Source of the DNA: an uncultured bacterium
Lineage (GTDB): Bacteria > UBP14 > UBA6098
Direction: 5' to 3'
DNA length: 64,000 bases
Assembly: GCA_964459995.1 (NCBI GenBank)
Contig: CAYWOR010000001.1
Span: 273,328-337,327, forward strand
The position numbers were made by a program, and so were the translations under genes. The stretch's first letter is position 1. The number at the start of each line of letters is the position of its first letter. Below are positions 3,701-35,335 of this stretch, one piece after another. The notes beneath the pieces were generated by a model. It had not been told where the DNA came from. It did no database searches and saw only the letters and a program-made list of their open reading frames with translations.

Positions 3701-4529
3701 GCTTTACGATCTTTATATGTTCTGGGATGATACCTATCTCTACCTCGGTCTTCACGGTGTAAAAGAGGCCGCGAGAAGCATGGTTGTGAATTCGTGGCTA
3801 ATTTACCTCGATACAGATTGGGGCGGCCCGAACGGCCAGTCCGATCTTCGCGAAATAAGTTCTTGGGACAGGAACGCGCAGTTCTCCGGCGGATTCCGCG
3901 CCGATATTCAATATGGCAGTTGGGGCGCGATGGATGGCGATGTCTGGCGTATCACAGGCCCGACTACCGCGGTGCAGATAACCGACGGCGTAATCGTGAA
4001 TACCGACCTAAGCGCGGCGCGTCCGGGAAGCGAAATCGCGATTAGTTGGAATTCTATCTACGGCATAGGCGAGGGTTTTGTAAATCCCCTGTCAACTATC
4101 GCTATTTGCGCGAGTTTGGCTGGAACGAACGATGACGACAATCTCGGCGGCGACTGCATTCCGAACCAGGCCTCGGCCTCATTTCCGGTTCTCGACAGTT
4201 TCTATGTGCAGGTCATCGATGCCGATGGCGACGGTCTTCCTGACGATTTCTTCGATGTCGTGGGAATTAGTGAACATGCTCCTTCTCGCGCCGAAAGTTT
4301 CGGAATACGAGCCTGCCCGAATCCCTTCAATTCTGCGGTTGAGATAATTACTTCGACTCGTAATAACTTGACAGTTGAGATTTTCGACATCAAAGGCCGG
4401 TTTGTCGATAGGGTCGAAATCGAGGCGGGAAGAGGAATTTGGCGTCCAAAAGAGGAAATGCCGACTGGAATATATTTTGCAAAAACAGGAAAAGGCTCCG
4501 ATTCGATAAAAATAACTTATCTAAAATAG
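783..4529 (+). CDS. Very large secreted protein (1248 aa) with T9SS type-A C-terminal sorting domain. N-terminal region carries GH57-like motifs (WVPERV, HHGNQ, LDDD). A CBM9-like module lies near residue ~950.
   Basis: Signal peptide MKKLSLILLFTLFVSIVIAE. C-terminus 'CPNPFNSAVEIITS..LTVEIFDIKGRFVD...GIYFAKT...KITYLK' matches Por_Secre_tail (TIGR04183-like). 'AWVPERVF' resembles GH57 conserved region III (WLTERV). 'GYIDTSEWLPAM...DLYMFWDDTYLYLGLH' is CBM9/DOMON-like. The catalytic assignment is weak. Confidence 0.55.
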   Translation: MKKLSLILLFTLFVSIVIAEIPSAWPLETLMGVELLESSNGEFPPCADILSCYFNAQSNRIRLRLPMMTNFITGENEFSSYNCGVQIEIAYSGALSDGVLGFSHNNTIFLAVGHDGRTSAWAYNGAPVEIDEVYFAPEFGIIEAEVRPPAEAEGFGARPVVRVETFVDGRAADIAHFDPELFPTYTTNCAFMHHGNQSLSYTDVFRGRWDDGHGGLASGFDEVLEVHQLYSIPGNFHISGTLISAAAWYDADFNTWVANGVSGGWIEVNTSAYAQHIMPFVADEMNDWAVSIENALVDHFYGFTPRVAWVPERVFLDGPGGAYPNAGVSDYIADNFADNGVWAIILDDDIHLAGHDNHQIHYLNGSTLRLIPRDNDFTGKLHAGDGGGALNNLVGMANNSSGPYRIAVYADDWEMAAEMGEWASSMPNALDAYEWIIQQCHLESSWLSTWKLTDAVVSPNFNGVGVTPAYGTHSSIGGTNGYGGGNNAWYTHWASYSSPSDQHSPQWNFGYIWFDAKNNLMTCPDNNTAQAGWYVLMSKLYETGWHDGMGGSISGWQMKHSAHIKNANVYAEAARWANGDLGTGVSATYADWDHNGDNELILRNGRVLAVFKHIGGRAHWIFGRGGTTGWEGSIAGNCNVYWEGTEGDYNDANHIAPLSDVSVGGHDYQHSLYSSEILYSTADSAEIRFTNYYVDKRIKVKSGEPFFRVYYDTGPDHIYVKSGFTPDLVDIIWNADMNRLWSAGSYCGFHNPNTRASAAIIMGTGGASHSTDFQSTILRGDEISGSGGFGFRIFAGELADVAGMSSPTLATLSAGVTDIYPPKAYYASYHPGTGVMEIAFGDTVKYNMVTMANIGIDRNGNGASDVTLDGTCTVINTSHAKIIRITLSPAKKTAVNALVMTNPHLWLSAGAFRDLRDNLNTTQTATVGSGVQLNVLPATSITIDGYIDTSEWLPAMHVIDDPDDDSHWGASNELYDLYMFWDDTYLYLGLHGVKEAARSMVVNSWLIYLDTDWGGPNGQSDLREISSWDRNAQFSGGFRADIQYGSWGAMDGDVWRITGPTTAVQITDGVIVNTDLSAARPGSEIAISWNSIYGIGEGFVNPLSTIAICASLAGTNDDDNLGGDCIPNQASASFPVLDSFYVQVIDADGDGLPDDFFDVVGISEHAPSRAESFGIRACPNPFNSAVEIITSTRNNLTVEIFDIKGRFVDRVEIEAGRGIWRPKEEMPTGIYFAKTGKGSDSIKITYLK

Positions 4530-4811
4530 CGCTAAATTGTCAATAAAATAATAATTAATAGTTGGTATCTCTTTGTAGTGTAATGAGATATATTCAGAGT
4601 ATTGTGAAAAACCGAAGCGAAAAATGTCCTTGCGAAGATGAAAAAAGAGCTTATTTTCTAATTAAGCGGAAATCAGTCGAAATGGACTGAAAAGCACAAA
4701 CGCACTCGTAATCGAAAGATTTATTCTATTCCCGCCCTCACAAATACGCGGAGTTATCGATTGATCGGCTCTCTGCGGGAGTATCATCATTATTCCGAAA
4801 GGGGAAATACG

Positions 4812-6188: not shown

Positions 6189-9100
6189 TTGAAATCATCT
6201 GTTGCCATAATTACTTTGATTGCGGCTTTTGCCCTCCTCGCGATTGCACCCTATAACAGCCCAATTATCGATGGTGCAATTGAGGCGGACTGGAAACCGG
6301 ACGAGAACATCCTCTCGGATCCGCCAAATGACAGCCCTTGGAGCGGAAACGAGCTTTGCGAATTATGGTTGACATGGTCTGCGGATCATCTATATATCGG
6401 TATCGAGTTTTCCGTGTCAGGAAATGGCGTTACTGTCTATATCGACGCCGATGAGGGCGGCACTTCAAGTTTCCGCGCAGAAGACGACTGGGAGGGCGCT
6501 TGGCGGCGCGATGTTACCTCGGAAAGGCCTATAGATATATTTATGGGCGGCTGGAATGGCTCCGCGATGAGTGTTTATCGAGCGGGCACGACAAATTCAA
6601 TCGATATAAGCGGTTTCTGCGAATCTTCCACAGGAGCGGGTTTCGAGGCCGAGGTGAAAATTCCGTGGGCGCAGATTTACCCCTCCGGAATGCCGGTGGG
6701 CGCAGAAATAGCTGTGGCGGTGCTTCTTGTCGGAGGGGACGACTATTTCGCCGCGGACGCTATGCCGGATCAGCCAACAGTTGGCGACGGTGCCGGACCG
6801 GATATCCTCGAGAATTTCCAGATTGTTGCCGTGGATTCTGACAGCGATGGCGTGCCGGATTTCGCGGGGACTTATATTGCAGGATTTGTGCGATTTTCCG
6901 ACATCGATACGCCGCCCTATCCGGTGGCGACAATCAATTGTGCAGGGCGTTTCGGCGAATCATCGACTTCTGACGGAAGTTGGCAGTTGCATGGCTTCGC
7001 GGTTGGAGATACTCTCGCATCGCTCAAAGCGAAAACTCCGGGGTATCGCGATGGAATCCTTCATGAAATTCTTGTAACCGAGCCGCCCAACGACACGTTG
7101 AATATTACTTTGGAGCCTTACACTGGAGCGGTTCGCGGGATGATTATTCCCGCCGTTCAGTGTTCAATCGTAGCGAGATTCTCCGATCAGAGCGACTCCG
7201 CGCGCTATTCGATATCAGTTCTAAGCGGCACTGGAGGCGAATTTGCTGTCGGTTACCTTGCGCCGGGATATTGGGATATTACCGCTTATCCTTATTCAGC
7301 GGATTTCTCCGCCACGAACGTCGAATCGGTGCGAGTCGCGGAGCCGGAGACGACGGTCATCGAAATTTTCCTCGAAGCCGCCTCGATTCTGCGTGAGTGG
7401 ACAGATGGTGTCGGCGACGATTATGGCCCGGGGTCATATACTTACCCGACCGAGCCGGTTTTCGTCGATGGTGCTTTCGACATAACCGGCGTCAGGATAA
7501 AGGATTACGCGGACGCCGGCGAAATCGAGTTCGAAATCGCAATGCGGAATATTCCCCATTACGGAATAGTTAACTGGGCACCCTTTTATCCGCCCCTAAA
7601 TCTACAGAAGATAGACATTTATATTGACGCCCACGGCGGAGGCTCCAGCCAAGGTCTTCCAAACCGCAATGTAAATTTCGTTCAGACCGATTATTGGGAC
7701 TGGGCGATTTCCGCTGACGGTTGGTGGGTCGGGATGTTTGCCTCCAACGGCCAGAGCATTTTCGATGGCTACACTCAGAATGTCATAGATGTTTCGATGA
7801 CTGCGGACACCTCGGCGAATACGATTTCTATTCGTGTTGCGAAATCGGCTTTCAGAGACCATTTGGGCGTTGCGAATTGGGACGAGTTCGACAGCTGGGA
7901 TTTCATCGTCCTTGCGATGGGGCACGACGGCGACGGTCTTGGCGGTGTGCGGTGGGTCAACCCCGGAAGCGCGAGCCAGTGGCAGTTTGGCGGCGGCGCG
8001 GAGGGGGATATCGATCCGAATATTATCGATATGTCTGTCAGTGCGGGAATCGACCCCGGAACAGGCTCAGTAAAAGAACCGGCGGATCCGCAGGAAACTC
8101 AACTCGACTGGACGATTAGCACTCCGGTGAGGCTTGCGGCGCATCGTGCCTTGGATGTTACACCTCCGACTATAGAGTTCGATAGGGAAGCCGAATTGGC
8201 GCATCTTTTCGGCACAAAGCACCTTTTAATTCGAACCGAAATCAAAGACGATATTGCGGTCGAAAGCGCTTGGTTACATTATCGGACGGCTGGCGCTTGG
8301 GACAGCGTGGCGATGGGAATCACAGAAAACCGCACGACTTGGTTCGGCGACATTGCGGTCGAAGGAAGGCTGGAAGACACAGATATCCCCGATTCGCTGA
8401 AATTTTTCTTTACGGCGACAGATGCCGCTGGCAACCGTGCGATTCTTCCCGACGACGGCGATTCGACCGTGCCGAATTATCCTTTTGCGGTGCATAGTGC
8501 GAATCCCGGGCGGGTCGTTTCCGCGCCGATAACCGTGGACAGCCTTAGAATATGCCTTCCGCAGAGTATGGACACTCTCGATTTCGATTTTGTATCCGGC
8601 GATATGATTCGAATCGCGCGGGCAGATTTGACTTCCTCCGGCACGATTTGCGTTGCAATTTCCTATCCGGCGGTCGTAGCGCGTGAGGGTGGTTTGGCGC
8701 GGCTTTCCGAAGTTAGACGGCGCATCGAAATCGGCGGTGCGGACATTTTCACACCTATGAATTTGCGGCTTCACTGGCTTGGGGGGAGAATTTCCGGGTT
8801 CGAGCCTTCGCAGTTGGTCTTATGCGAATACAGCGCGGATATCGCTCCGAGGCCCTACGGCGGAGTATTATATGAAAGAGCGAATACAATACTCGGCGAG
8901 GCTTTTCCCGGCACCGGTTTTTGGGCTGTCGGCGAGGATTTGCGAGATTTTCGCGGCAAGGGCGCATTGCGGAATATCGCCTTTTCGCCCAATCCATTCT
9001 CCCCAAACGGAGACGGCGTCTATGACCGGGTCGCAATCAGCTGGGAATCTGATTTTGACGGCAGTATGGATGTGGATATTTACGATATTAACGGTAATTT

Positions 9101-9293
9101 TGTGCGCGAATTGCATCGCAACACAAGTTTCCGATCCGGTAAAAGCCCCACGACATGGTGGGATGGTATAACACACAATGGAACAGTCGCGAAAGCCGGT
9201 ATTTACGCTGTCCGATTCGAATATACATATATCGGTGAAGAGGGAGTTCAGCTAAGAACAAGGATTAACAAACCAATAGTGATTATAAAATAA
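6189..9293 (+). CDS. Large secreted protein (1034 aa): CBM9-like N-terminal module, glucodextranase-C-like domain, FlgD-Ig/T9SS-like C-terminal domain. TTG start as given by the ORF track.
   Basis: Hydrophobic N-terminus. '[14 protein letters not shown]...[16 protein letters not shown]' is CBM9-like. '[35 protein letters not shown]...[14 protein letters not shown]' resembles Glucodextran_C (PF09985). C-terminus '[21 protein letters not shown]...[13 protein letters not shown]...GIYAVRFEY...IVIIK'. Confidence 0.5.
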
Positions 9294-9314
9294 TAACATT
9301 TCAATGGAGGTAAG

Positions 9315-10244
9315 ATGTCAAGAGCGGAAATCAAAGTCGGAGATCTCGAGTTAGTAATCGAGATCGAGAAGGGTAGCATTGCGGAGAAGCTCGAACAGCT
9401 TTTCAGCGCGATGAGACTCGAAGGCGCCGCGGCAAAAGTTGAGATCGCCGAGGCGGATACAAAGGCAAAACCCAAGCCGGAGCCGAAACCGCAACCGGCT
9501 GTCGAAGCCGAACCGAAGACCGAAGAAAAGCCGGTCGAAATCAAAGAAAAGGTCGATGAAAAGCCCAAGCCAAGGCTCAAAATCCGTGAAGGCACAATGA
9601 ACAAGAACATTGTGGAGGACAAAGCGAAGATGCTTGTGGAATCGAAAAAGTTCAAAGGCTTCAGGGAAGAGCTAAAGTCCAAAGAAGAGCTTGCATACAA
9701 ACCCGAGCCTAAAATCGAACCGAAACCCGAGCCAAAAGTCGAGGTTAAACCTGAACCGGTAAAAGAGGAACCGAAACCGGAAATAAAACCGGAACCCAAA
9801 GTCGAGGTCAAGGTCGAACCTAAACCGGAGATTAAGCCGGAACCGAAACCCGAGCCGAAGCCGGAACCGAAGCCGGAACCTAAGCCGGAACCTGTTGCTG
9901 AAATCAAACCCGAACCTATGCCGGAACCGGAGCCTATGCCTGCAGTTACTCAGGCTAAGGGCGATATCGATGTGACCGCTTTCGCGAAATTCATCTCGAC
10001 ATTCCCGGAAAAGCTCAACGAGCCATACACTATTCTGGCTTTCGCTTCTTTCGTCGATAGGACTTTCGACGCGAGGGAATATTTCGATGTTATGGAGGCA
10101 ATCGGTGTGCTGAACCCTAAAACGCGTAAAAGATTCCTGATTTACACGAATCTGCTCGCGAAACTCGGCAAAATCGATCAGCCCGGGAAAACGACTTTCC
10201 GCATTACGGAAAGAGGCAGAAGCGATCTTCAGAAAAAGCTCTAA
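9315..10244 (+). CDS. Hypothetical protein with a ~200-aa (K/E)P-rich low-complexity tract (KPEPKPEP...) and a ~95-aa structured C-terminal domain. No signal peptide.
   Basis: GGAGG SD 7 nt upstream of ATG. Composition is TonB-linker-like ((EP)n(KP)n) but lacks an N-terminal TM helix. The C-terminal '[16 protein letters not shown]' is winged-helix-like. The minus-strand ORF 9248-9907 (GSGFGS repeats) is its shadow. Confidence 0.5.
9700..9960. repeat. In-frame imperfect tandem repeat, ~12-bp period (ccg gaa ccg aag / ccc gag cca aaa), encoding the KPEP tract. Potential VNTR.
   Basis: Visible periodicity 'ccggaaccgaagccggaaccgaagccggaacctaagccggaacct' at 9840-9900, more degenerate copies upstream. 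Confidence 0.6.
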
Positions 10245-10256
10245 TAAGGATTAATC

Positions 10257-10658
10257 ATGAAAATGGCAATAGCTGTCGTTATCTCGCTTGTTATCGGCTT
10301 TCTCGTCGGTTTCGTGCCTTTGTCGATGAAACGCGCCGAACTTAATGCCGAGGTTACCGCCCTCAAGACCATGCTTGACGAAGCAAAGTCTCTCGCCGAG
10401 AGAACCGAACTCGAAAGGGTTACCCTGAATGCTTTTATCGGAGCATATGAGGGCGCGATGAATAAAAACTACGGCATCGCACAAAACCGCGCTATTTCGG
10501 GGTTTGACAAGGCGGAGATTCTCGCACAGAGGGGAATATCGCCCTATAGCAATATTGTCTCCCTTCGCGACGAGACGGTGTCGATCCTTGCTAAAGCCAC
10601 TGACGACGCGCAACCGAAGGTCAGGTTGTTGCTTTTTAGTCTCTACAAGGAACAATAG
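10257..10658 (+). CDS. Small membrane-anchored coiled-coil protein (N-terminal TM helix), hypothetical
   Basis: AAGGA SD before ATG. 'MKMAIAVVISLVIGFLVGFVPL' TM followed by a heptad-rich segment. The antisense ORF 10251-10655 has random-looking composition. Confidence 0.4.
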   Translation: MKMAIAVVISLVIGFLVGFVPLSMKRAELNAEVTALKTMLDEAKSLAERTELERVTLNAFIGAYEGAMNKNYGIAQNRAISGFDKAEILAQRGISPYSNIVSLRDETVSILAKATDDAQPKVRLLLFSLYKEQ

Positions 10659-10663
10659 CCGAT

Positions 10664-11512
10664 TTGCGGAATGTAGTCTTCATATTTGCGATTCTCGTTT
10701 TCAGCGCTTTTGCGTTGCACGAGGAACAGACCGCTCCCGCGCGGATGCTTGGGATGGGGGGGACAGTCGTAGCGGCCGGAAATGGCGTGTCGGATGTCCC
10801 CTTCAACCCTGCTATTTCAGCTGGAATTGGCAGAATGTCGCTTGCCGGGACATATTCAGCACGCTGGGAGCTGGAGGGGTTTCGTGAATATTCCGCCGCA
10901 TTTGCGATGCCCGTGCGCTATGCAAATTTCGCGGTATATTGGCATGAGCGCAGTGTTGGCGATGTTTACGGTGAACACACCGCCGCGCTTAATGTGTCGA
11001 AAACCTTCCACGACGATATCCATGTTGGCATAACCGCAAAATTGTTGGCTACTTCCGCTCCCGGTGCGGAGCTTTGGGACGATCCGGCTTATAAAGGCGC
11101 CGTATATACGCCATGTGCAGATTTCGGGGTTCTTTATACACCAGGTGAAAAATGGCGCTTTGGCCTTTCCACGCGCAGTCTTGGTGCTCCTGAGGTGAAG
11201 CTTCTCGATTCGAGCATCGAAGGGGAGAAACTCGGAGGGCAGATTGCGCTCGGAAGCTCATGGGAGGCGGCACCGGACCTGATTCTCGCGATGGATATTC
11301 TCTCTCACGAGGGGAATCTGCATAGGTGGACACCGCGAATCGGAATGGAGATAACCTTTTTCGAGACTGTGGCTCTTCGTGCGGGCGCTAATGGCGAAAG
11401 ACTCTCTATGGGGGCTGGTTTGAAAGCCGATAGATGGGCTTTCGATTTCGGATTGCTTAATCATAGATGGCTGGGCAATATCTACAGAATAACATTGAGT
11501 TTAAACTACTAA
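10664..11512 (+). CDS. Putative outer-membrane beta-barrel protein (PorP/SprF-like or FadL-like 'NPA' motif family)
   Basis: Signal peptide MRNVVFIFAILVFSAFA. 'GMGGTVVAAGNGVSDVPFNPAISAG' resembles the N-terminal motif of OM transport barrels. Alternating hydrophobic pattern, aromatic C-terminus '...ITLSLNY'. Confidence 0.4.
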   Translation: MRNVVFIFAILVFSAFALHEEQTAPARMLGMGGTVVAAGNGVSDVPFNPAISAGIGRMSLAGTYSARWELEGFREYSAAFAMPVRYANFAVYWHERSVGDVYGEHTAALNVSKTFHDDIHVGITAKLLATSAPGAELWDDPAYKGAVYTPCADFGVLYTPGEKWRFGLSTRSLGAPEVKLLDSSIEGEKLGGQIALGSSWEAAPDLILAMDILSHEGNLHRWTPRIGMEITFFETVALRAGANGERLSMGAGLKADRWAFDFGLLNHRWLGNIYRITLSLNY

Positions 11513-11521
11513 ATACGGAGT

Positions 11522-12154
11522 ATGGCGATGAAAAAAACTTTCTTATCAATGCTAATTCTTTTCGCAATGATTATGGTTGGATGTGCACCGAAAGTTATGA
11601 TCCCCCCAAAAATCGATCTCTCCAAATATGAGAAAATCGGTTTGTTGGAACTTAACTCCAATTCGGAGGGGAATTTGACGCCCTATCTTACCGAGCGTTT
11701 GCTTCAGTCGATTCTCGAGGATCAGCCGGGGATAATGGTTGTGGAGCTTGGCAGAGAGGAAGATTTGCTGTATCAACTCGGTTTTCAAACGATGACACCG
11801 GATGCGATTCGTGCTATCGGAGATAACTATAATATCAAGACTATTCTCAGCGGAATCATCGATTTTACCTCTCCTGCAACATCTGTGGATTTCAGCGGCG
11901 GGCTAAAGAGCATGAGCGTAACCTCGTCCGTTTCGGCGATGCTGACTCTTAAAATGCGCGATTCCGCCTCCGGAGTTACGGTCTGGAGCGGTTCTTCACG
12001 CGCTGAACGCGAGATTTCCGATGCAGGATTTTTCGGGGGGACATTCCATTTCGATGCCGAAAACCCCGAAAAGGCTTACGGCAAACTCGCCGACAAACTC
12101 GTCCGCGACGTTACGAAAGATTTTCGTGTAACCTACGAAAGGCGAAGGGATTAG
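11522..12154 (+). CDS. Lipoprotein, hypothetical
   Basis: Lipobox 'LFAMIMVGC' (signal peptidase II type). No recognisable catalytic motif. Confidence 0.45.
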   Translation: MAMKKTFLSMLILFAMIMVGCAPKVMIPPKIDLSKYEKIGLLELNSNSEGNLTPYLTERLLQSILEDQPGIMVVELGREEDLLYQLGFQTMTPDAIRAIGDNYNIKTILSGIIDFTSPATSVDFSGGLKSMSVTSSVSAMLTLKMRDSASGVTVWSGSSRAEREISDAGFFGGTFHFDAENPEKAYGKLADKLVRDVTKDFRVTYERRRD

Positions 12155-12165
12155 CGAGTTTATCG

Positions 12166-12939
12166 ATGGAGACAAAATACGAAATAGCAAAGAACTGGTT
12201 TGCGCGCTATGTTGGCGTTAGCATCGACGAAATGGGCGATAGAATACTCTTGACTAACTTTCGGCATTATCTCGAAAGCTTCGCGAATAGGTTCGATGTT
12301 CCAATTCATGGTATCGGCGGACCGATGCAATCCGCGACGAACTCCGAGGGGTTATCGTTGATAAATTTCGGCATGGGCTCGCCCAACGCCGCAACCATAA
12401 TGGATCTGCTTTGCGCCCGAAAACCGCAGGCGGTGCTCTTTCTCGGTAAATGCGGCGGTATCAAACATGCGGCGGAAATCGGTCATTTCATACTTCCGAT
12501 AGCCGCAATCCGCGGTGAAGGGACTTCGAACGATTATTTTCCCCCCGAAGTGCCTGCTTTGCCGTCGTTTAAACTTCATAAATTCGTGTCGGAGAAGATA
12601 CTAGAACACGGCCACGAATATCGCACCGGCGTTGTTTACACAACGAACCGACGGCTTTGGGAGTGGGACTCGGATTTCAAGGAGTATCTGCGGAAGATTT
12701 CGGTAATCGGAATCGATATGGAGACCGCGACGATTTTTATTGTCGGACACGCGAACCATATTTCGCATGGCGCGCTGTTGCTTGTCTCGGATACCCCTAT
12801 GACTCCGGAGGGTGTAAAAACAGAGGTTTCCGACCGCACGGTAACCGAGAAATACGCCGAGCTTCATCTTCAAATTGGAATCGAGGCAATGAGCGAAATA
12901 ACTGACATGGGAGAATTAATAAAGCACTTCACTTTTTAA
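12166..12939 (+). CDS. amn: AMP nucleosidase-like protein, short form (PNP_UDP_1 catalytic domain only, no N-terminal regulatory domain)
   Basis: Strong motif-level identity to the E. coli Amn catalytic domain: 'NFGMGSPNAATIMDLLCARKPQAVLFLGKCGGI' (cf. 'NIGVGPSNAKTITDHLAVLRPHAWLMIGHCGGL'), 'IGIDMETATIF' (cf. 'AIDMESATIA'), 'LLLVSDTP' (cf. 'LLCVSDKP'), 'LHLQIGIEAM' (cf. 'EHLQIGIRAI'). Confidence 0.6.
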   Translation: METKYEIAKNWFARYVGVSIDEMGDRILLTNFRHYLESFANRFDVPIHGIGGPMQSATNSEGLSLINFGMGSPNAATIMDLLCARKPQAVLFLGKCGGIKHAAEIGHFILPIAAIRGEGTSNDYFPPEVPALPSFKLHKFVSEKILEHGHEYRTGVVYTTNRRLWEWDSDFKEYLRKISVIGIDMETATIFIVGHANHISHGALLLVSDTPMTPEGVKTEVSDRTVTEKYAELHLQIGIEAMSEITDMGELIKHFTF

Positions 12940-12980
12940 GTAAAGTCAATTATTAATAGGGAGAAATCGCGACTTATTCG

Positions 12981-14423
12981 ATGAAAAAATTCATTGCGAC
13001 ATTATTTCTCTTCGCCGCAGGAGTTTTTGCAGTGGGGCTTGGGGGATATTACGAAATCCAGACCCGCCTCGCAGAGGACGGCACATGGCAATTGTTCGAG
13101 CCGAATCATCGATTCGAATTGCGCCTTCACGCCTCACCTTGGCAGGACACCGAGGCTTTTGCGAAATTCTATGCCGAGCTTTCGCGAATGCAGGATAACG
13201 ATCCCGAAAGGCGTCTTCGGGAATACACTCTTCTCGAAGGGCACCTCAAATACCGATGGCCACAGCATTTCGAGGTTTTAGCCTTCACGAAGGAGAACCG
13301 GTTTTGGTTTTCGCAGGGGCTTTTCGAGGTAGTTACCGCGGATCGGCTTGCGGGGGATTCGCAAGCGCTTCGTATGGATTTCTGGGGTTTCGGACCGGTG
13401 AGCGGGCTGGCTTATTACAATGATTGGTCGGGCTCCTCGGGAAGAGAGGATGCTCTCGTAGGGCGGATAAATGCACCCTTTTGGAAGGACAGAGTTCGTT
13501 TTGGGGCAACTGCCGCGCGAAAAGATTGGGGTGCTTCAACCTCCGATTATAATGCGGTCGTCGGCGGTGATGTTGGAGTTTCTGTCGGGCGGACAATCCC
13601 TCAATTGAGGCATTTCGGGAATATCGACATCACAGCGCAGGCCGCTACGAGCAGGACGCCTTTTGAGCCTCAGAGTGCCGACGACTTGATTTGGGCGGTG
13701 GAGATGCGTCAGCTCAAGCTCAAGGATTTCGAGCTTCAGGCGCGTTATCACGATTATGGCGCTGATTTTCGTAGCTATCTCTCGAACCAATTCGATTACG
13801 AGCAAAAGTTCAATGAGAGCGGCTATTATCTTCGCGGGGTCTATTTCTTTCCGATGAAGGCTGTCAATCTTTCTGCGAGTTATTCGCACACGAGCGCTCC
13901 TCAAAATAGGCTTCAGATAGTGTCCGAGTCGAACCCAAACCGGGATTATCGTGAAATATATGGTGAAATATATATTGAATGGGTCAACAATATTAAATCG
14001 AGAGTTTACTTCAAACAATACAATGGATGGGATCCGACCTATAACTCGAATCGCGATTATCCGACGTTTTTTGGCGAGATGAGCCTTGAAAACAGCCTTG
14101 CGAAAGTGCGTGCGCAGGTTCGCGCCAAAGATATTGGCACACCCTATCAGGTCATTGCGACAGGTGCGGAGATAAATGTCAACCTATCGAAAGATTTGAA
14201 ACTTTATGCGCGCGCTGTCAATGCCGCCGAAGACTACGAATCACGCCAAACAGCTTTTGTGCAACTTCGCTATGAGAGATTCCAGCCAGCGGAGATTTTT
14301 CTCGAATTTGGTAATCCGGGAGATTCTGATAATGACCTCACAAATGACGATGATTTTGTCAATGAGGCCGCCAGTCATGGGGTTAACAAGCAAATAAAAC
14401 TTTTCGTAAAGGTGTATTTCTGA
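12981..14423 (+). CDS. Putative outer-membrane beta-barrel protein (480 aa), hypothetical
   Basis: Signal peptide MKKFIATLFLFAAGVFA. Amphipathic beta-strand-like alternation throughout. C-terminal '...IKLFVKVYF' with terminal Phe, typical of the BAM substrate signature. Confidence 0.45.
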   Translation: MKKFIATLFLFAAGVFAVGLGGYYEIQTRLAEDGTWQLFEPNHRFELRLHASPWQDTEAFAKFYAELSRMQDNDPERRLREYTLLEGHLKYRWPQHFEVLAFTKENRFWFSQGLFEVVTADRLAGDSQALRMDFWGFGPVSGLAYYNDWSGSSGREDALVGRINAPFWKDRVRFGATAARKDWGASTSDYNAVVGGDVGVSVGRTIPQLRHFGNIDITAQAATSRTPFEPQSADDLIWAVEMRQLKLKDFELQARYHDYGADFRSYLSNQFDYEQKFNESGYYLRGVYFFPMKAVNLSASYSHTSAPQNRLQIVSESNPNRDYREIYGEIYIEWVNNIKSRVYFKQYNGWDPTYNSNRDYPTFFGEMSLENSLAKVRAQVRAKDIGTPYQVIATGAEINVNLSKDLKLYARAVNAAEDYESRQTAFVQLRYERFQPAEIFLEFGNPGDSDNDLTNDDDFVNEAASHGVNKQIKLFVKVYF

Positions 14424-14956
14424 TGAAAGAAAAAATACAGCTTCCGTTGGATTTCAAAATGTGGACAATGGTTCCCGTATATCTTGTGCTCATTGGAATT
14501 GTCTTTTATTTTGGGAGTGTGCTAGGTGCACGCTGGGCTTGGATGATTGGCTCACTCCTTATTGGAATATTGACAGGAATACCCGCCGCGAAATGGGAAC
14601 TTGCCGCAATCGGGGAATCATGGGAGGAGATACTCCACGGGCCGCTTGTGGGGTTCCGGCTTGCATATTTCAAGAAAGAAGGCGCGCGCAGAAGATCCTT
14701 CTATTTTCTGATTATGTCATTACTGGTTCCAGTGATTTATTTTCTGCTATCATATAATTTTTATTGGTATAGATATTTATCCGAGTCCGACATTCGGGAT
14801 TCCCTTTATCTAATGGTTCGTTGGAATGGATGGTATTGGTTCCCTTATGTTTTCGGGATGTCATTTTCCAGCACATGTCTTCCGCGCCTTATAGCGGCGG
14901 AGAGCTACAAACACGATAAAATCCCCTATCCGCGCGGGGTGAAAGATGCGAAATAA
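14423..14956 (+). CDS. Integral membrane protein (about 4 TM), hypothetical
   Basis: Four hydrophobic helices. Start overlaps the upstream stop (ATGA-type coupling). Confidence 0.4.
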   Translation: MKEKIQLPLDFKMWTMVPVYLVLIGIVFYFGSVLGARWAWMIGSLLIGILTGIPAAKWELAAIGESWEEILHGPLVGFRLAYFKKEGARRRSFYFLIMSLLVPVIYFLLSYNFYWYRYLSESDIRDSLYLMVRWNGWYWFPYVFGMSFSSTCLPRLIAAESYKHDKIPYPRGVKDAK

Positions 14957-17702
14957 ACTTGACAGACATGTTTTGGCGATTTTATCCGCCGGAGTTGTGG
15001 TAATTATGTCGCTGACAGCTTTAGCGGCGGTCGAGATGTCGGAGATGGGTGCGGTTTTCACTTTGGATGCACCGGAAGCACAATCCGTGCATCTTACAGG
15101 TGATTTCAACGGCTGGTCGGAATCCGCTACGCCGATGAAATTGGCTGGCGGTCTTTGGCGTGTCGAACTCGAACTCGCCCCGAAACGTTATGAATACAAG
15201 TTTTTGGTCGATGGGAGATATATCGAAGACCCTGATAATCCAAACACAAATCCCGATCCCTATGGCGGAGTGAATTCCGTTGTAACGGTCCACCCGAGCG
15301 GAGAAGTGCCTCTTCCCGACGACCCGCGAGGCGATCGAATTGATCCAAAAAAACTTTCCGATTCGAGCGCGATTCTTTTCGAGTATCAAAACCCAAATGC
15401 GCGCAAAGTATTCATTGCAGGCGATTTCAACGACTGGTCAACCGAAAAAAATCCATTGATGAACGATGGAAATGGGTTATGGAAAACAACGATTGACATA
15501 TCGCCGGGTAAATACGAGTATAAATATTACGTCGATTATGAATATATTATCGATCCTAACAACCCTAATCGCGTTCCTGACCCCTATGGCGGCGAGAATT
15601 CGATTATATATGTTCCGATATCGGATTACGATTTGATTGACGACGGCTTCAGAGGTAATGAATTTGTGGAGGTGATAGATTCACACGAACCGCAAACACG
15701 AATGCAGACTCAACCCGATGCGAATCGTTCTGCAGAAGGGACGGAATATGCTTTCGAGTATTACAACCCCGGAGCGAGGCAGGTTTTTATCGCCGGTGAT
15801 TTTAATTCGTGGTCTCCAAACGCCGCGGAAATGGTCTCTACCGGCGAAGGCAATTGGTCGAAAAAAATTGTCTTAAAGCCGGGAAAATATGGTTATAAAT
15901 ATATTGTCGATGGCAACTGGCAACCAGACCCTGAAAATCCCAATACACAGCCTGATGGCTACGGCGGAGTGAATTCGGTAGTGGAGATTTCGAAATCCGG
16001 CGAAATTGTGAGGTCAGAGAAGGCCAAAATTGCCGACCGTGTGTCGAACACTTTCGCAAATAGCAGGGTCTATATCGGCGGGAAATACACCGGTATCGCC
16101 GAAAGTAGGTGGAATCGCGACGGCGACGGACGTTTTCGCCTCAATGTGCCGAGGCATCGAATGGAAGCCTTCTTGCGGGTTAAAATAAGCGATAATGTGC
16201 GCGCGGTGGGGGCTTTGAGTTTTGATACAAAAGAGGCTGAAAGGATTTACGAGACATCTCTTGCAATGGATAGTGCCGCAGTAGAGCTTGTCAACGATAA
16301 TTTCCGTGCACAAATATACTATAACCGGCCTGTGGGCGGGCTTGGCGACCCGTTGGATATGGTTGGGAACTCGGCGATGGCGGGGAGCCCCGATGTCGAG
16401 ATTCCTTTTGGAATGGGCACTGGCGGAATTAAAGCCGAAGGCGAGCTTTTCGGTGCGAAGTTGACCGGTATCTACGCCGATAGGTATCACAGCAGAGCGG
16501 CCCAATTGCCCGACGGCGCGCTTCTCGACGGTCTCGGAAGGCCGACTTTCGGGCTTTTCGCAGAAGATGTAATCTCGCCATCTCCAAACCCGAACGCTTA
16601 CACAGGATATTCGACAGATATTCTCGCGGCGCGGATTTCACGCGGGATAGGACCTACGGAGATCGGCGCATCGTTACGAATGGATTCGGGGAATTGGTGG
16701 TATTCTTACGCATCCATGAGTTTGCCGGAACTTTCCGAGTGGGTTGATTCCACCGGCTCTACAAGCGATTGGTTCGCACTTGGCAAAACAGAATGGCTTT
16801 ATGGCGCGGATTTGCGGCTTAAAATAGGCCCCACGAGCCTTTGGACAGAGTATCTGCTATATGACTATGTCGGTGGAGTTGTCGCAGGAAATCGTGAAAA
16901 CGATGCTCGCGACAACAACGGTCCTATCGACCTCGAACTCGGCGCTAGAAAGGGAAATCTCGGCGATGTTGGATTTGGAATCGATCTTTTCGATTTGGCC
17001 ATAATCGGCGGCAAATACTCGTCCTTGGTCTATTCCGCTCCGAAGGACAGCGGCGTTTACTTAGAGCCGGCACCATCGATTTCCGGAAGCGGAAGGGTCG
17101 ATATGACATATTTCGAGCTTGTCCCGGAGGTCTCGACAACATGGTGGGAGAGCTACGACCTCGAAATCGGCCTTCAGCGATATTTTCCGGTTACATTACG
17201 CGGAGGAATCGAGAAATCTGCGGATTCGTTTACTGATACTCGTCGGGATGTTCGAAAACTCGGCTTCTCGGCAAAGGGTTCTATCCTTTGGGATTTCGTT
17301 CTTTACGATATTTGCGGCGATTGGGCAAACGCGGAATATGCTGACGGAGCTACTCAATTCGAGTTCTTATCGAAGTATGCATTGTCAATAAATCTTACCG
17401 AGAATTGGTATGTCGGTGTGGATGCAGTATTTCACGCCATCGAAGCTATTTCCGCCGAAGATTCGATATTGTGGGACGGCGTGTCCAAACCTTTGTTCGC
17501 ATATATTCAATATAGCCCTGTGCAAAATGTCCGAATGCAGGTTTACTGGGGCTTCCATCCCTCGATGGCAAACGGCTGGGTCGCGGGACGCCGCGAATTT
17601 GTCGATACATATATGCGCGAAAACGGCGCGACCTTCGCCGAGGCGTGGGAAGAGCTTGATAAAGTCCGTCAGATTGGGTTCCGCGGCGAAATCGATTTCT
17701 AA
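14946..17702 (+). CDS. 918-aa envelope protein: N-terminal signal/anchor, four tandem CBM48/AMPK-beta-type glycogen-binding modules, ~560-aa C-terminal domain ending in Phe (putative OM beta-barrel)
   Basis: Four repeats of 'V.L.GDFN.WS......M.....G.W........PG.YEYKF.VDG.....DP.NPN..PD.YGG.NS' at about residues 40-120, 145-225, 265-345 and 360-430, matching AMPK1_CBM/CBM48. C-terminus '...IGFRGEIDF'. Confidence 0.6.
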   Translation: MRNKLDRHVLAILSAGVVVIMSLTALAAVEMSEMGAVFTLDAPEAQSVHLTGDFNGWSESATPMKLAGGLWRVELELAPKRYEYKFLVDGRYIEDPDNPNTNPDPYGGVNSVVTVHPSGEVPLPDDPRGDRIDPKKLSDSSAILFEYQNPNARKVFIAGDFNDWSTEKNPLMNDGNGLWKTTIDISPGKYEYKYYVDYEYIIDPNNPNRVPDPYGGENSIIYVPISDYDLIDDGFRGNEFVEVIDSHEPQTRMQTQPDANRSAEGTEYAFEYYNPGARQVFIAGDFNSWSPNAAEMVSTGEGNWSKKIVLKPGKYGYKYIVDGNWQPDPENPNTQPDGYGGVNSVVEISKSGEIVRSEKAKIADRVSNTFANSRVYIGGKYTGIAESRWNRDGDGRFRLNVPRHRMEAFLRVKISDNVRAVGALSFDTKEAERIYETSLAMDSAAVELVNDNFRAQIYYNRPVGGLGDPLDMVGNSAMAGSPDVEIPFGMGTGGIKAEGELFGAKLTGIYADRYHSRAAQLPDGALLDGLGRPTFGLFAEDVISPSPNPNAYTGYSTDILAARISRGIGPTEIGASLRMDSGNWWYSYASMSLPELSEWVDSTGSTSDWFALGKTEWLYGADLRLKIGPTSLWTEYLLYDYVGGVVAGNRENDARDNNGPIDLELGARKGNLGDVGFGIDLFDLAIIGGKYSSLVYSAPKDSGVYLEPAPSISGSGRVDMTYFELVPEVSTTWWESYDLEIGLQRYFPVTLRGGIEKSADSFTDTRRDVRKLGFSAKGSILWDFVLYDICGDWANAEYADGATQFEFLSKYALSINLTENWYVGVDAVFHAIEAISAEDSILWDGVSKPLFAYIQYSPVQNVRMQVYWGFHPSMANGWVAGRREFVDTYMRENGATFAEAWEELDKVRQIGFRGEIDF

Positions 17703-17711
17703 GGGGCGTTT

Positions 17712-18107
17712 ATGAAAAGGGCTATCGAGACATTCGCAGTTATCGCAATTCTTTTTTTCTGCGCCTGTGCGGTTGGAGATGCAATCAAAAACAGGCTTCC
17801 GGCACCTCATAGAGTTGACGGAGGTGTGCTTTTCATGTATGAATACCCCGCCGCCAAACATGTGCAGGTTTGCGGAAATTTCAACAATTGGTGCGGAACC
17901 AAAGACACCGGCGGAATTCTCGATCCATCGATCGGGGTGATGTCCGACGAAAACGGCGACGGAATTTGGGAGTTTAAGATCGATCTTCCACCGGGAAGAT
18001 ACCAATATAAATATGTCGTGGACAGAATTAGCTGGGTGATGGACCCCTCGAACCCGAACATCGATTCGGAAGATGGCATCGAAAACAGTCTTCTGATTCT
18101 CCGTTAG
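17712..18107 (+). CDS. Small lipoprotein with a single CBM48/AMPK-beta-type glycogen-binding module
   Basis: Lipobox 'ILFFCAC'. 'VHVQVCGNFNNWCG........GIWEFKIDLPPGRYQYKYVVDRISWVMDPSNPN' matches the CBM48 pattern. Confidence 0.55.
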   Translation: MKRAIETFAVIAILFFCACAVGDAIKNRLPAPHRVDGGVLFMYEYPAAKHVQVCGNFNNWCGTKDTGGILDPSIGVMSDENGDGIWEFKIDLPPGRYQYKYVVDRISWVMDPSNPNIDSEDGIENSLLILR

Positions 18108-21200: not shown

Positions 21201-21461
21201 GCCGATAATATCAACGATGTCGCGATGTTTTTCTATCCCAACATGTTCAGCGAGCCGGCGGAGCTGGTTGTATTCGACACGCGCAACAGAGAGGTCTGGA
21301 GATCGAGCATCCCGACACAGGAAGACATTGTGTCCGCCCCCGGAAGACTTTGGGATGGCCGGCGCAAAGACGGCACTCAGGCTGATTCCGGAATCTACCT
21401 TTATGTTCTGACCTCCGGCGGCAGGGTGATCTGCAATGGAACACTGTTGCTATTGAGGTGA
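18216..21461 (+). CDS. Secreted 1081-aa protein: N-terminal BNR/sialidase-like beta-propeller-type repeats, central jelly-roll (PA14-like?) region, C-terminal T9SS type B sorting domain
   Basis: Signal peptide. 'SNDNGTSW' Asp-box-like and repeated 'LH.VW' blades. C-terminus 'VVPNPFTPNADNINDVAMFF....LVVFDTRNREVWRS....WDGRRKDG.....GIYLYVL.....ICNGTLLLLR' matches the type B (TIGR04131/CHU_C-like) pattern. Confidence 0.55.
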   Translation: MLRKIIAITFIIFAITALAEPVVVARDVHGSASGLNNQRTIVRNSGGILYCAYSGFDGGSYQIYIAMSNDNGTSWVPDWRQITFDTTNHYQPSLVIDSQDTLHLVWRGNSVTGSDANLLYAKWPAFTITTLCASSGYPGAYCPSMAVGPDDDLHVVWTGCPSGWQVRYMRFDVATGSWGPTENVGVMTPSRWPSVEADTDGNPHVVYRNTFGSPSHYRCSHRMKIGGTWRGFNGENRDTLDVFLVSGRSSLEFTSIYIDPDDNLYATWQWNDYFGSHPDTVRFRKFNHSAYTWGAETAIWGNDSSDSYTAYNGDVVVDSSGVIYVFYHDNDSCYVAISYDGGLSFVGDSVVSHGNYTARYPTARGSLWPPFNRTGSCIDYVYTWSHPDSTIKYLIYDNTCGQKETTFVVAETVFPPSGVILSCSDQSIITYIACPEPCSVSLFSSPATVEYYDSASATWRPVSARDPSVWEPYEVPGADWVWGSMMSAGRGYWFRAFIEHDCTEFSRATIKIRCDNQAWVYCNDEFVDTTNGYSGTGPWGWRTMFEFDLTEFLHGGTDTFTILATNVSGWAGLAFHISIENPGGCCGEIDPWSIDYVVNGRHYSYGDPELDWDGDSTLIFTPMPPDTFQNGDTVFAKLLFAADTCVGELDTVVTNASVLFFIDLAPPVIQLISPSFGDLTSLPDNFFFGLWDSISGLDIASIRADVAGLIFGDGEFGAIYADSVFSFAATDVGIVWSPGDSIIISISAWDSPDLCDPNADTLRWAWFMRDPEAPIPSIIEPEPWIYSACAPESIMVEILDPHGIAPATIELEINGEIFTVDSPEISWEEPVLTYFAVDGWPNTDTIRVSLNHAEDIFGNDISAPLQWAFIVDYEPPTAEMTAPAVEMTRDVRQDIVIWICDRLSGVDPSTALLNIDGAEFPLENMQWTPDAPCGELYFRPEDVGLIFVNGETVHVCLTIGDSPNRCAPNVAEFCWSFLIEPEVGCEVVPNPFTPNADNINDVAMFFYPNMFSEPAELVVFDTRNREVWRSSIPTQEDIVSAPGRLWDGRRKDGTQADSGIYLYVLTSGGRVICNGTLLLLR

Positions 21462-21462
21462 T

Positions 21463-24090: not shown

Positions 24091-24229
24091 GGCTAAATTC
24101 CCCCCCTTTGTTCTGAACCCCCCTTTCGACTCGGATATGACGTTGTTTGCCCGATCGTGATGCTGAAAGTTTGTCCTTTGGAATGCGAAATCGCCTGAAA
24201 GGTCATCATCGGCGGCATCATATCGATTT

Positions 24230-24700: not shown

Positions 24701-25060
24701 ACCATCGAGCGAATTTTGCGTTAAAATCCCTTTTGACGGAAAAGACAGATGATGCACGACCCAAATATCGCAAAATATTCTCCATATGTCTCGATTTCGG
24801 TCTCAGGGTTCTCAAATCGAGCAAAATGGATTGCTAATTTGTCCAACACGATTACAAAAGTAGGCAAAGAATTGAAGTCATTGCTAATCAATGAGTTCGA
24901 GGAGTCGCTCCACCGAAAAAAGAAATCGCATTGTTTAATAAAAATATTGCCGCGGCATTTGACGCAAACGAAAATTCGATATTGATACCCCACGCACCCT
25001 TATCTCTTGACAAAACCACCAGCGAACATTAGCTTTCCTCAAACAAACAATGGAGGTAAA

Positions 25061-25579: not shown

Positions 25580-25602
25580 AAAATAGTAATTTCCTACATA
25601 AT

Positions 25603-25682: not shown

Positions 25683-25738
25683 ATGTGCCGATAGCGAAAC
25701 GCCGCCGCTTGGCACGGAAATAGCTAATAAGCAGGGAT

Positions 25739-35321: not shown

Positions 35322-35335
35322 TATTAAAAACCGCT

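Follow-up and report, generated by a model that had tools for sequence, protein, structure and literature searches.

The window analyzed here is a 64-kb stretch of DNA from a Zixibacteria-like bacterium of the FCB-group, the nearest named relatives of which are Zixibacteria MAGs; the analysis is computational throughout, and the organisms carrying the locus are all uncultured. Positions 9315–18107 hold nine ORFs, all on the + strand (g1 to g9 below), in agreement with the nine co-directional genes described in an earlier sequence-only reading, and a second, independent gene caller run on the source contigs reproduces the genes for the 480-, 177-, 918- and 131-aa proteins. These genes and the three upstream of them are as follows:

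783..4529, + strand: g0a, GH57 enzyme of 1248 aa, T9SS type A tail; context, predicted secreted alpha-glucan hydrolase of the genome
4761..6182, + strand: g0b, 473-aa T9SS type A cargo (TIGR04183, 38.1 bits) with a weak CBM48-like module
6189..9293, + strand: g0c, Glucodextran_C protein of 1034 aa, C-terminal sorting domain resembling CHU_C/FlgD_ig; first core gene, outside 9315–18107
9315..10244, + strand: g1, 309-aa (KPEP)n repeat protein without a signal peptide; lineage-specific
10257..10658, + strand: g2, 133 aa, single membrane helix at the N-terminus; accessory, closest clade only
10664..11512, + strand: g3, 282-aa predicted OM barrel of the PorV/PorQ/PorP superfamily; core, proposed anchor or shuttle of g0c
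11522..12154, + strand: g4, 210-aa lipoprotein (lipobox ...IMVGC); accessory, closest clade only
12166..12939, + strand: g5, short-form AMP nucleosidase, cytoplasmic; lineage-specific insert
12981..14423, + strand: g6, 480-aa predicted OM beta-barrel of about 24 strands, no plug; core, undescribed family
14423..14956, + strand: g7, 177-aa polytopic membrane protein of hydrophobic sequence, overlapping both neighbors; accessory
14946..17702, + strand: g8, 918 aa, signal peptide and three CBM48 modules fused to a large predicted C-terminal OM barrel; core
15042..15287, + strand: g8 CBM48 module 1 (aa 33–114), Pfam CBM_48/AMPK1_CBM stretch; AlphaFold2 beta-sandwich, pLDDT 83–91
15363..15614, + strand: g8 CBM48 module 2 (aa 140–223), Pfam stretch; AlphaFold2 sandwich, pLDDT 87–94
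15723..15998, + strand: g8 CBM48 module 3 (aa 260–351), adjoining the barrel; best Pfam stretch 273–351, retained in all homologues
16068..17699, + strand: g8 predicted barrel (aa 375–918), about 22–26 strands, final strand preceded by two helices (881–905); neither plug nor TonB box
17712..18107, + strand: g9, 131-aa lipoprotein with one CBM48 module; core, most conserved of the set

The gaps from g1 to g9 are, in order, 12, 5, 9, 11, 41, −1, −11 and 9 nt, with start and stop codons overlapping at some junctions; the 0–12 nt spacing or overlap proposed earlier describes these junctions well except for the 41 nt between g5 and g6. The tight co-directional run on the + strand exceeds the nine genes, extending roughly from 4761 to 29011. 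A promoter and terminator scan found sites at the frequency of shuffled sequence, which speaks neither for nor against a single operon, and Rfam and tRNA scans of the region yielded nothing informative. Minus-strand ORFs were discarded because they mirror or overlap + strand genes (e.g., 9248–9907, reading GSGFGSG..., is antisense to the KPEP repeat). Most of the envelope assignments made for the nine products stand, the exceptions being two non-envelope products, namely the cytoplasmic g5 and g1 with its missing signal peptide. As for the three giant T9SS-sorted neighbors that had been reported, T9SS tails are indeed present on the flanking proteins, but one of the upstream proteins is only 473 aa long.

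The conserved five-gene core and its lineage-specific inserts

Gene order compared among 26 species-level genomes, from Zixibacteria, Eisenbacteria and other groups, delineates a core of five genes, g0c, g3, g6, g8 and g9, and with five metagenome loci added their order holds from 81% down to 27% g6 identity. In every locus with room for it, g8 comes after g6, and a g9-type CBM48 lipoprotein comes after g8, while g3 lies upstream of g6 in about 17 of 20 loci. One locus, L009, has g6–g7–g8–g9 without g0c or g3, followed by genes for a GH57 enzyme and a binding protein. The neighbors are, in other words, co-conserved across related genomes, and the conserved unit is this five-gene core, not the nine-gene block: g3, g6, g8 and g9 of the block originally delimited belong to it, whereas g1, g2, g4, g5 and g7 are lineage-specific inserts and the upstream g0c had been left out.

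Among the inserts, g1 agrees with its description as a (KPEP)n linker protein and contains tandem repeats of 12/24/48 nt at 9767–9893. The T2SSM/LapA matches of g2 are weak and below cut-off, and g4 has no family match in Pfam or NCBIfam; together with g9, it carries a lipobox, as expected from the lipoproteins called at the locus. The call of a short-form AMP nucleosidase for g5 is upheld by a full-length match to NF005500 (372.2 bits vs a cut-off of 264) and by PNP_UDP_1 (E 1.5e-26); the 480-aa form has an additional N-terminal domain that g5 lacks, and g5 matches positions 274–475 of NF006142. We considered and rejected a tie between this enzyme and the "AMPK-type" modules of its neighbors, because g5 is absent outside one clade and the shared name only tells in which family the CBM was discovered.

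The reading in which all nine genes of 9315–18107 constitute one obligatory machine, with the AMP nucleosidase, the KPEP protein, g2, g4 and g7 as parts of it, draws on their tight and partly overlapping spacing and on the relatives L001 (g8 65% identical) and L002 (48%), which keep nine or eight of these genes in unchanged order. It is quite improbable, as g2 and g4 orthologues, like g5 at this position, are limited to the closest clade (L001–L003/L007), g1 to L001/L007, and g7 to L001, L002, L008, L009, L015 and L018 of the Zixibacteria-like clade, while g3, g6, g8 and g9 persist outside these clades; g5, moreover, acts on nucleotides in the cytoplasm and has no known envelope link. That unrelated envelope genes lie side by side by chance, sharing no function, might be entertained given that the g6 and g8 barrels are devoid of annotated relatives, leaving no function readable from homology; yet Zixibacteria, Eisenbacteria and other lineages keep the gene order at 26–31% g8 identity, with start and stop codons overlapping, and we give such an explanation hardly any credence.

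CBM48 modules and predicted outer membrane barrels

Profile searches recover strong CBM48 matches in both g8 and g9. The former matches AMPK1_CBM with 146.9 bits (cut-off 26.8; E 2e-43) in three stretches and CBM_48 with 112.7 bits, and AlphaFold2 models its N-terminal region as three CBM48 sandwiches with a disordered linker. Hence, of the 918-aa protein with four tandem CBM48 modules and a C-terminal Phe proposed previously, the length, the domain family and the Phe are retained, and the module count is corrected to three. Full-length g8 homologues have one to three CBM48 modules each, module 1 being missing from the more distant ones, and all of them end in Phe. Module 3 aligns to the CBM of rat AMPK beta1 (1z0n, E 1e-9), its residues W289, K318, W325 and N343 occupying the positions of W100, K126, W133 and N150, which contact glycogen in the rat protein (PMC4032982). 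In 30 homologues, these four residues of g8 either never vary or reach at least 90% conservation.

The lipoprotein g9 matches AMPK1_CBM with 38.6 bits (cut-off 26.8; E 1.2e-9) and CBM_48 with 25.6 bits, also above cut-off, and aligns to the AMPK beta2 CBM (4y0g, E 3.8e-7) with the same four contact positions kept, in line with its earlier designation as a CBM48 lipoprotein. Its orthologues are 46–62% identical where g8 is 26–31% identical, and all have the lipobox Cys (...GGC, ...SGC, ...TGC or ...SSC, the window g9 having FCAC) followed by the motif (A/L)IK(D/N)RLP(P/A)PH.V(E/D)GG. By score and conserved contact residues, g8 and g9 are clear members of the CBM48 family and are predicted to bind alpha-glucans.

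AlphaFold2 predicts large beta-barrels for g6 (pLDDT 80), in which the barrel begins right after the signal peptide, and for residues 375–917 of g8, consistent with the OM beta-barrel candidates previously named at the locus; the C-terminal 545 aa of g8 are thus predicted to be a membrane barrel and not a soluble domain. The generic hallmarks of OM beta-barrels are present, namely a signal peptide, a closed antiparallel barrel and a C-terminal aromatic beta-signal (VKVYF in g6). Superposition of g8 on FhuA involves the barrel only (371/707 residues). We read from DSSP strings how many strands the barrels have, whether the pores are occluded and how the CBM48-barrel linker runs; the strand parity of g8 is ambiguous in them (22–26). 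Neither barrel has a sequence family match in Pfam, NCBIfam or PDB, LamB included among the Pfam/NCBIfam models, and PDB sequence searches with g3, g6 and the g8 barrel gave nothing useful except a weak PorV match of the g3 profile. The g8 barrel has 24 cluster representatives among 1.84 billion proteins. Residues 16–124 of g6 align with the beginning of the barrel domain of g8 (hhalign probability 79%, E 1.6e-5; about 100 aligned residues): the two may be distant paralogues, and this alignment suggests that g8 roughly corresponds to g9 and g6 fused.

The g8 barrel alternates, over its N-terminal half, between long and short inter-strand connections, and its first strand starts on the short-turn side. 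As a usual rule, the short-turn side of OM proteins is periplasmic, which would therefore place the CBM48 modules, lying N-terminal to the barrel, at the periplasm. The model thus suggests that they face the periplasm, and cell-surface capture by g8 is doubtful.

T9SS cargo, its putative anchor and the alpha-glucan setting

Upstream of the block, g0a matches Pfam Glyco_hydro_57 (24.8 bits, cut-off 21.2) and TIGR04183 Por_Secre_tail (29.4 bits, cut-off 23), with orthologues upstream of the core in L004/L012 and L007. The CBM48-like module of g0b scores 24.4 bits with AMPK1_CBM, under the cut-off of 26.8, and g0b orthologues (43–62% identity) lie directly 5' of g0c in L001, L002, L004 and L011. 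The type A tails of g0a and g0b score above cut-off and therefore imply a T9SS in this genome; its core components (SprA/Sov, PorKLMN) were not found within the 64-kb window. The first core gene product, g0c, has a Glucodextran_C match (E 3.9e-35) and a putative sorting domain that is sub-threshold with CHU_C (26.4 bits vs 27), TIGR04131 (16.8 vs 35) and FlgD_ig (20.4 vs 27); CHU_C is above cut-off in the L019 orthologue of g0c (27.8) and in g10 (29.5), and even the shortest g0c version (L030, 378 aa) retains the sorting domain. In all, the block lies among five CTD cargo genes, including g0a–g0c and g10, with a second PorV/Q-like gene, g13, nearby.

The g3 protein has a signal peptide and a C-terminal Tyr, and matches the NF033709 PorV_fam model over its full length (12–325/326; E 5.7e-11, 42.6 bits vs a curated cut-off of 90). 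This model is matched by 14/14 g3 orthologues (E <= 0.01, best 1.4e-24) and the PorP/SprF model TIGR03519 by 8/14 (best 8.5e-8), the window g3 having no match to the latter at E <= 0.01; the g3 profile also matches Flavobacterium johnsoniae PorV (6h3i_F, E 1.6e-5). On these profile matches, g3 is a distant relative within the PorV/PorQ superfamily rather than a curated member of it or a generic porin. In most loci the g3-type gene lies directly 3' of the g0c-type gene, with g1 and g2 intervening in the window. Such genetic linkage is a hallmark of T9SS type B cargo, which binds adjacent PorP/SprF-like proteins (PMC9143113, PMC12618676).

The core shows a recurrent association with alpha-glucan metabolism: GH57/GH13 enzymes and/or the SBP, permease and MalK of a MalEFGK-type importer are encoded within 10 kb in 17 loci, while no amylase or importer was found nearby in L014, L029 and L030. 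In the 64-kb window, no sugar ABC importer was found, and the only GH57 is the upstream one. Many loci have, 3' of g9, a GH57 with a signal peptide, CBM48 and CBM20 but without a T9SS tail, which implies that long glucan chains are present in the periplasm. Neither the window genes at 27–29011 nor the gene tables of L001–L006 contain a match to Plug, TonB_dep_Rec or SusD, so the gene lists inspected uphold the claim that this is not a Sus-type locus. The broader suggestion of a different OM alpha-glucan capture system is sustained as far as the alpha-glucan link in 17 loci and the absence of Sus parts are concerned, but not as regards surface capture by g8.

A putative route for alpha-glucan acquisition compared with known systems

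Taken together, we propose, with confidence about evenly poised, that the region is a locus for the utilization of alpha-glucans (starch, glycogen or maltodextrin), constituting a non-Sus, TonB-independent OM acquisition module coupled to T9SS display. Its first part would comprise g0c and g3, with the T9SS exporting g0c and the PorV/PorQ/PorP-like g3 holding it at the cell surface much as SprB is held by SprF. The second would comprise g6, g8 and g9, that is, two wide plug-less barrels each paired with CBM48, fused N-terminally in g8 and supplied for g6 by the lipoprotein g9. T9SS-secreted GH57/GH13 enzymes would cut the glucan, and long maltodextrin chains would cross the OM via the barrels without TonB. 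The CBM48 modules at the periplasmic mouth might grip the incoming chain as a ratchet or gate, and the chain would then be handed to periplasmic CBM-bearing GH57 enzymes and to a maltose-type binding protein with its ABC importer. What the analysis shows is the domain content, the barrel folds, the conserved sugar-contact residues, the synteny and the genomic association with amylases and importers; we infer where the proteins reside, that g9 pairs with g6, which way transport runs and that CBM48 works as a ratchet or gate. A 22–24-strand barrel without a plug would be very leaky unless occluded, which counts against this proposal, as do the missing importer in the window, the three loci with no amylase or importer nearby, and the sub-threshold scores of g3 and of the g0c sorting domain.

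A competing explanation, which we regard as unlikely, is that g3, g6, g8 and g9 form a T9SS accessory or attachment complex that exports, gates or anchors CTD cargo (g0a–g0c and g10), with the CBM48 modules acting as structural plugs, as does the T9SS Plug on SprA. A CBM48-like fold is also present in the T9SS Plug, which is not known to bind sugar. The PorV/Q/P-like nature of g3, the five CTD cargo genes around the block, the nearby g13 and a sub-threshold match of g8 to NF052315 T9SS_plug (E 2.2e-10) would all fit such a complex, as would the sealing of the periplasmic mouth of SprA by Plug (PMC7463736). However, the CBM48 modules are much closer to true glycogen-binding modules than to Plug (2e-43 vs 2e-10) and keep the four sugar-contact residues, neither the g6 nor the g8 barrel matches an NCBIfam T9SS family, the cargo partner is always glucan-related, and L009 dispenses with g0c and g3 while retaining the GH57 and binding protein. 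A reversed direction can also be envisaged, with the barrels secreting a self-made alpha-glucan (a capsule or biofilm polymer) in the manner of AlgE, PgaA or Wzi and the CBM48 modules guiding the nascent chain. Their structural matches are generic and no better to export channels than to uptake channels; moreover, no glycosyltransferase, synthase or Wza/Wzc-type gene is conserved beside the core, the conserved neighbors being hydrolases with secretion signals and a binding-protein-dependent importer, and export is accordingly a very improbable reading.

Returning to alpha-glucan acquisition, it bears on a process, OM polymer uptake, that is understood mainly through specific porins and TonB-dependent SusCD-type transporters. 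Known CBM48 modules occur on GH13 enzymes, glucan phosphatases and AMPK/SnRK1 subunits; we found neither a report of a CBM48-OM barrel fusion nor a description of this locus or system in the literature. The locus suggests that several uncultured phyla of sediments and the subsurface (Zixibacteria, Eisenbacteria and relatives) may use different parts for starch and glycogen, namely barrel families without a Pfam/NCBIfam model, the CBM-barrel fusion and T9SS surface display outside Bacteroidota. If the proposal is correct, g6, g8 and g9 together would mark alpha-glucan use in MAGs that lack SusCD, offer a test case for energy-independent, binding-driven polymer import, and illustrate how T9SS cargo/anchor pairs can be recruited for nutrient uptake. 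Given their modest size, the proteins lend themselves to direct expression and testing. A bolder extension, which we put forward as a long shot, is that g6, g8 and g9 represent a third kind of OM glycan importer beside specific porins (LamB, CymA) and TonB-powered SusCD/TBDT systems, in which periplasmic CBM48 modules, tethered in g8 and lipid-anchored as g9 in the case of g6, close the pores of two wide, paralogous plug-less barrels and ratchet long alpha-glucan chains inward without TonB energy, with T9SS-displayed binding proteins physically coupled via a PorV/PorP-like anchor.

The g0c–g3 pair resembles the T9SS type B pairs SprB–SprF and PG1035–PorP, in which a large surface protein with a CHU_C-type domain, putative in the case of g0c, is followed by a PorV/Q/P-superfamily barrel of about 290 aa. 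It differs in occurring outside Bacteroidota, in the better fit of g3 to the PorV/PorQ than to the PorP/SprF model, and in that g3 and the g0c sorting domain are under the curated cut-offs, the binding of g0c to g3 being putative. The LamB barrel has 18 strands and that of CymA 14, and neither carries an appended CBM. In contrast to the LamB/ScrY/CymA channels working with MalE-MalFGK2, with which they share no sequence similarity, the barrels described here have about 22–24 predicted strands (22–26 by DSSP), are paired and are coupled to CBM48. TonB-dependent transporters have a plug and a TonB box in a 22-strand barrel, whereas the N-terminus of g8 is made up of CBM48 modules and the g6 barrel starts after the signal peptide. 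SprA–Plug, LptD–LptE and the usher plug are precedents in which a wide barrel is closed off by a domain that is either separate or tethered; they have no sequence relationship to the present proteins, in which capping by CBM48 is conjectural. Finally, the Sus system of Bacteroidota (SusC/SusD, the SusE/F lipoproteins and the SusG amylase) differs in having SusD, a plug, a TonB box and SusC itself, none of which has a match here. It also uses one barrel in place of the two found here, one of which has CBMs joined to its N-terminal side, which is probably the periplasmic one. Moreover, the surface proteins of the present locus would be displayed via T9SS sorting domains and not as lipoproteins, and its inner-membrane step is, in most loci, a MalEFGK-type ABC importer.

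Gene run and flanking genes

A co-directional plus-strand run spans about 27 to 29011 of the window (GC about 50%). The nine ORFs (g1–g9) claimed by the sequence-only reading at 9315–18107 are real genes on the plus strand, and an independent gene caller yields the same g6–g9 on the metagenome contigs of origin, which reach 430 kb. The three adjoining proteins that it took to be sorted by type IX secretion (T9SS) do lie upstream of g1.

Genes of the run and of the rest of the window
783–4529: g0a, GH57 enzyme with T9SS tail
4761–6182: g0b, 473 aa, weak CBM48-like module and T9SS tail
6189–9293: g0c, 1034 aa, Glucodextran_C protein with CHU_C/FlgD_ig-like tail
9315–10244, plus: g1, KPEP-repeat protein
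10257–10658, plus: g2, single-pass membrane protein
10664–11512, plus: g3, PorV/PorQ-family-like barrel
11522–12154, plus: g4, lipoprotein
12166–12939, plus: g5, short-form AMP nucleosidase
12981–14423, plus: g6, predicted barrel
14423–14956, plus: g7, polytopic membrane protein
14946–17702, plus: g8, CBM48 modules and predicted barrel
17712–18107, plus: g9, CBM48 lipoprotein
18216–21461: g10, BNR/CHU_C protein downstream of g9
ending at 24090: g11, g10 paralogue (44% identical) with no detectable tail
starting at 25007: g12, small barrel, OMP_b-brl protein
25739–26629: g13, second, stronger PorV/PorQ-family match (E 4e-23)
downstream of g13: g14, M23 peptidase
28997–29791, minus: prepilin peptidase, just past the cluster
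35189–35821, plus: N-methyl (type IV pilin-like) protein, just past the cluster
36717–39686, minus: Por_Secre_tail cargo, 989 aa, NIDO-like region, just past the cluster
51752–63688, minus: polysaccharide biosynthesis cluster, by position unrelated to g1–g9 (several GT2/GT4 glycosyltransferases, UDP-GlcNAc 2-epimerase, GDP-mannose-dehydratase-like enzyme, polysaccharide deacetylase, PMT_2 protein)

The remaining genes serve housekeeping and polysaccharide biosynthesis, and tRNA and Rfam scans of the window gave no match. From g1 to g9 the intergenic gaps are, in order, 12, 5, 9, 11, 41, −1, −11 and 9 nt; promoter-like and terminator-like sites were no more frequent in a scan than in shuffled sequence, and hence a single transcription unit is plausible but unproven. 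The identification of g5 as a short-form AMP nucleosidase holds (NF005500, 372 bits against a cut-off of 264), while g2, g4, g6, g7 and the C-terminal 545 aa of g8 match no curated Pfam or NCBIfam family. The g5 gene is embedded in a string of otherwise envelope-protein genes; its position is kept in relatives with a g8 only 48% identical (L002), and no other lineage has it. The KPEP protein g1 has no signal peptide, and its C-terminal domain of about 100 aa is conserved only in L001 and L007. A minus-strand ORF at 9248–9907 (219 aa, GSGFGSG...) was rejected as a gene, being merely the antisense of the g1 repeat.

Downstream, g10–g14 (18216–28527) form a second set of CTD (C-terminal sorting tail) cargo with a PorV/Q-like barrel, in a gene order conserved in L001. 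Between g11 and g12 about 400 nt (24230–24640) are nearly pure A/T against the roughly 50% GC of the genome; they hold neither a convincing ORF nor an Rfam match and may be regulatory or curved DNA, or else an artefact of assembly.

Conservation of two modules

Homologues of g8 were traced back to their contigs, with loci mapped by BLAST and tblastn, and a g6 profile was scanned across GTDB at one genome per species, yielding 26 loci in Zixibacteria, Eisenbacteria/Eiseniibacteriota, one 'Spirochaetes'-labelled MAG and unnamed MAGs. In every locus with room, g8 comes after g6 and a g9-type CBM48 lipoprotein (one module in most lineages, two in Eisenbacteria) follows g8. About 17 of 20 loci have the g3 barrel ahead of g6; ahead of g3 lies a Glucodextran_C protein with the g0c-type C-terminal domain. 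Identity in g9 is 46–62% where that in g8 is only 26–31%. On the other hand, g2, g4 and g5 are confined to the closest clade (L001–L003/L007), g1 to L001/L007 and g7 to a Zixibacteria-like clade. As the core genes are kept and these five are lineage-limited, the conserved system is made up of two modules, g0c+g3 and g6+g8+g9, and the nine-gene block is an elaboration of it in one lineage. The Zixibacteria MAG SpSt-1142 (L009, 1–13443) has g6-g7-g8-g9 alone, followed by a GH57 enzyme and a binding protein (SBP); the genes upstream of g6 are on the opposite strand, and both g0c and g3 are absent within 4.2 kb. Thus, the barrel/CBM48 module is separable from the T9SS cargo/anchor pair.

Individual loci show further variations. 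In Zixibacteria bacterium 4484_93 the g6 orthologue is split over two frames (L021, 1298–2212 and 2214–2618), either by a frameshift or by a sequencing error. The two most divergent loci, L029 (5226–7097) and L030 (13440–15092), carry an extra ORF of 550–620 aa without a Pfam match between g8 and g9. On a complete Eiseniibacteriota chromosome (L019, 3076–6665), two response regulators, one of them a sigma-54 activator, precede the core and are candidate regulators of the locus.

Barrels, CBM48 modules and the T9SS link

Structure prediction bears out that the C-terminal part of g8 is a membrane barrel and not a soluble domain. By sequence, neither this barrel nor that of g6 has a relative among known structures. 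The barrel of g8 is a rarity, with 24 cluster representatives found among 1.84 billion proteins; in all of these, 115 or more residues precede the barrel, which lies behind an N-terminal module. Since the first ~100 residues of g6 align with its first strands (profile comparison, 79% probability, E 1.6e-5), the two barrels may be distant paralogues.

The CBM48/AMPK1_CBM assignment of g8 stands (Pfam E 2e-43), with three tandem modules (three Pfam stretches and three beta-sandwiches in the AlphaFold2 model) instead of the four first counted; g9 has one, as claimed (E 1.2e-9). In AMPK beta1 the carbohydrate is contacted by W100, K126, W133 and N150 (PMC4032982), with which W289, K318, W325 and N343 of the third g8 module align; these positions vary little or not at all across 30 homologues and are also kept in g9. 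All g9-type lipoproteins (L001–L030) share the post-Cys motif (A/L)IK(D/N)RLP(P/A)PH.V(E/D)GG (window 17712–17830), conserved far beyond the needs of a flexible tether and hence possibly a docking peptide.

Along the N-terminal half of the modelled g8 barrel, the connections between strands are long and short by turns, and the first strand begins on the short-turn side. By the usual rule, the short-turn side of an outer-membrane barrel is the periplasm; hence, the g8 modules are probably periplasmic or luminal and not devices for capture at the cell surface.

The g3 protein is more than a generic barrel: it aligns end-to-end with the PorV/PorQ model (E 5.7e-11, under the curated cut-off). All 14 orthologues examined match this model and eight match PorP/SprF as well; searched against the PDB, their profile picks up F. 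johnsoniae PorV. Type B cargo proteins are genetically linked to PorP/SprF-like proteins, need them and stay bound (PMC9143113, PMC12618676). The pairing of g3 with g0c fits this pattern, and even the smallest g0c orthologue (L030, 378 aa) carries the tail; membership is tentative, as both g3 and the g0c tail of the window score under the curated cut-offs.

Alpha-glucan association and competing explanations

A tblastn survey, its assignments confirmed by Pfam searches, placed GH57/GH13 enzymes and/or a set of binding protein, permease and MalK within 10 kb in 17 loci; many GH57 enzymes directly after g9 have a signal peptide, CBM48 and CBM20 without a T9SS tail. The flanks of L029 and L030 yielded neither an amylase nor a sugar importer, and the substrate of these two loci may thus differ. 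The locus was rightly called not Sus-type: SusC, SusD, plug and TonB-receptor domains are absent from every gene list examined.

Synteny excludes a chance juxtaposition of the genes, and the patchy distribution of five of the nine (g1, g2, g4, g5, g7) contradicts the sequence-only reading's framing of all nine as one machine. The PorV/PorQ-like g3, the neighbouring T9SS cargo and a sub-threshold match of g8 to the model of the T9SS Plug (for its function, PMC7463736) hint at a role in T9SS alone. This reading loses weight because the sugar-contact residues are conserved, g6–g9 can occur as a unit on their own, and amylases and importers are constant neighbours. For export through the barrels of a glucan made by the cell itself, a conserved synthase is lacking. 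A conserved, uncharacterised envelope module associated with alpha-glucan is, on computational grounds and in uncultured organisms, well supported.

Most likely, we infer, T9SS-secreted GH57/GH13 enzymes and binding proteins would attack starch or glycogen at the surface, where g3 would retain g0c; long maltodextrins would pass the outer membrane via g6 and g8, both without plug and TonB box, and CBM48 modules would grip the chain and hand it over to periplasmic GH57 and an ABC importer. A plugless barrel of 22–24 strands would require closure, for which a CBM48 module is a candidate. Since CBM48 is fused to the barrel in g8 and missing from its possible paralogue g6, g9 may serve g6 as a separate CBM48 partner.

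Full-text literature searches found no description of the system or of a CBM48-barrel fusion. Its general logic is that of known glycan utilisation loci, in which proteins that bind at the surface work with a channel in the outer membrane and an importer; the parts and how they are arranged are without known precedent.
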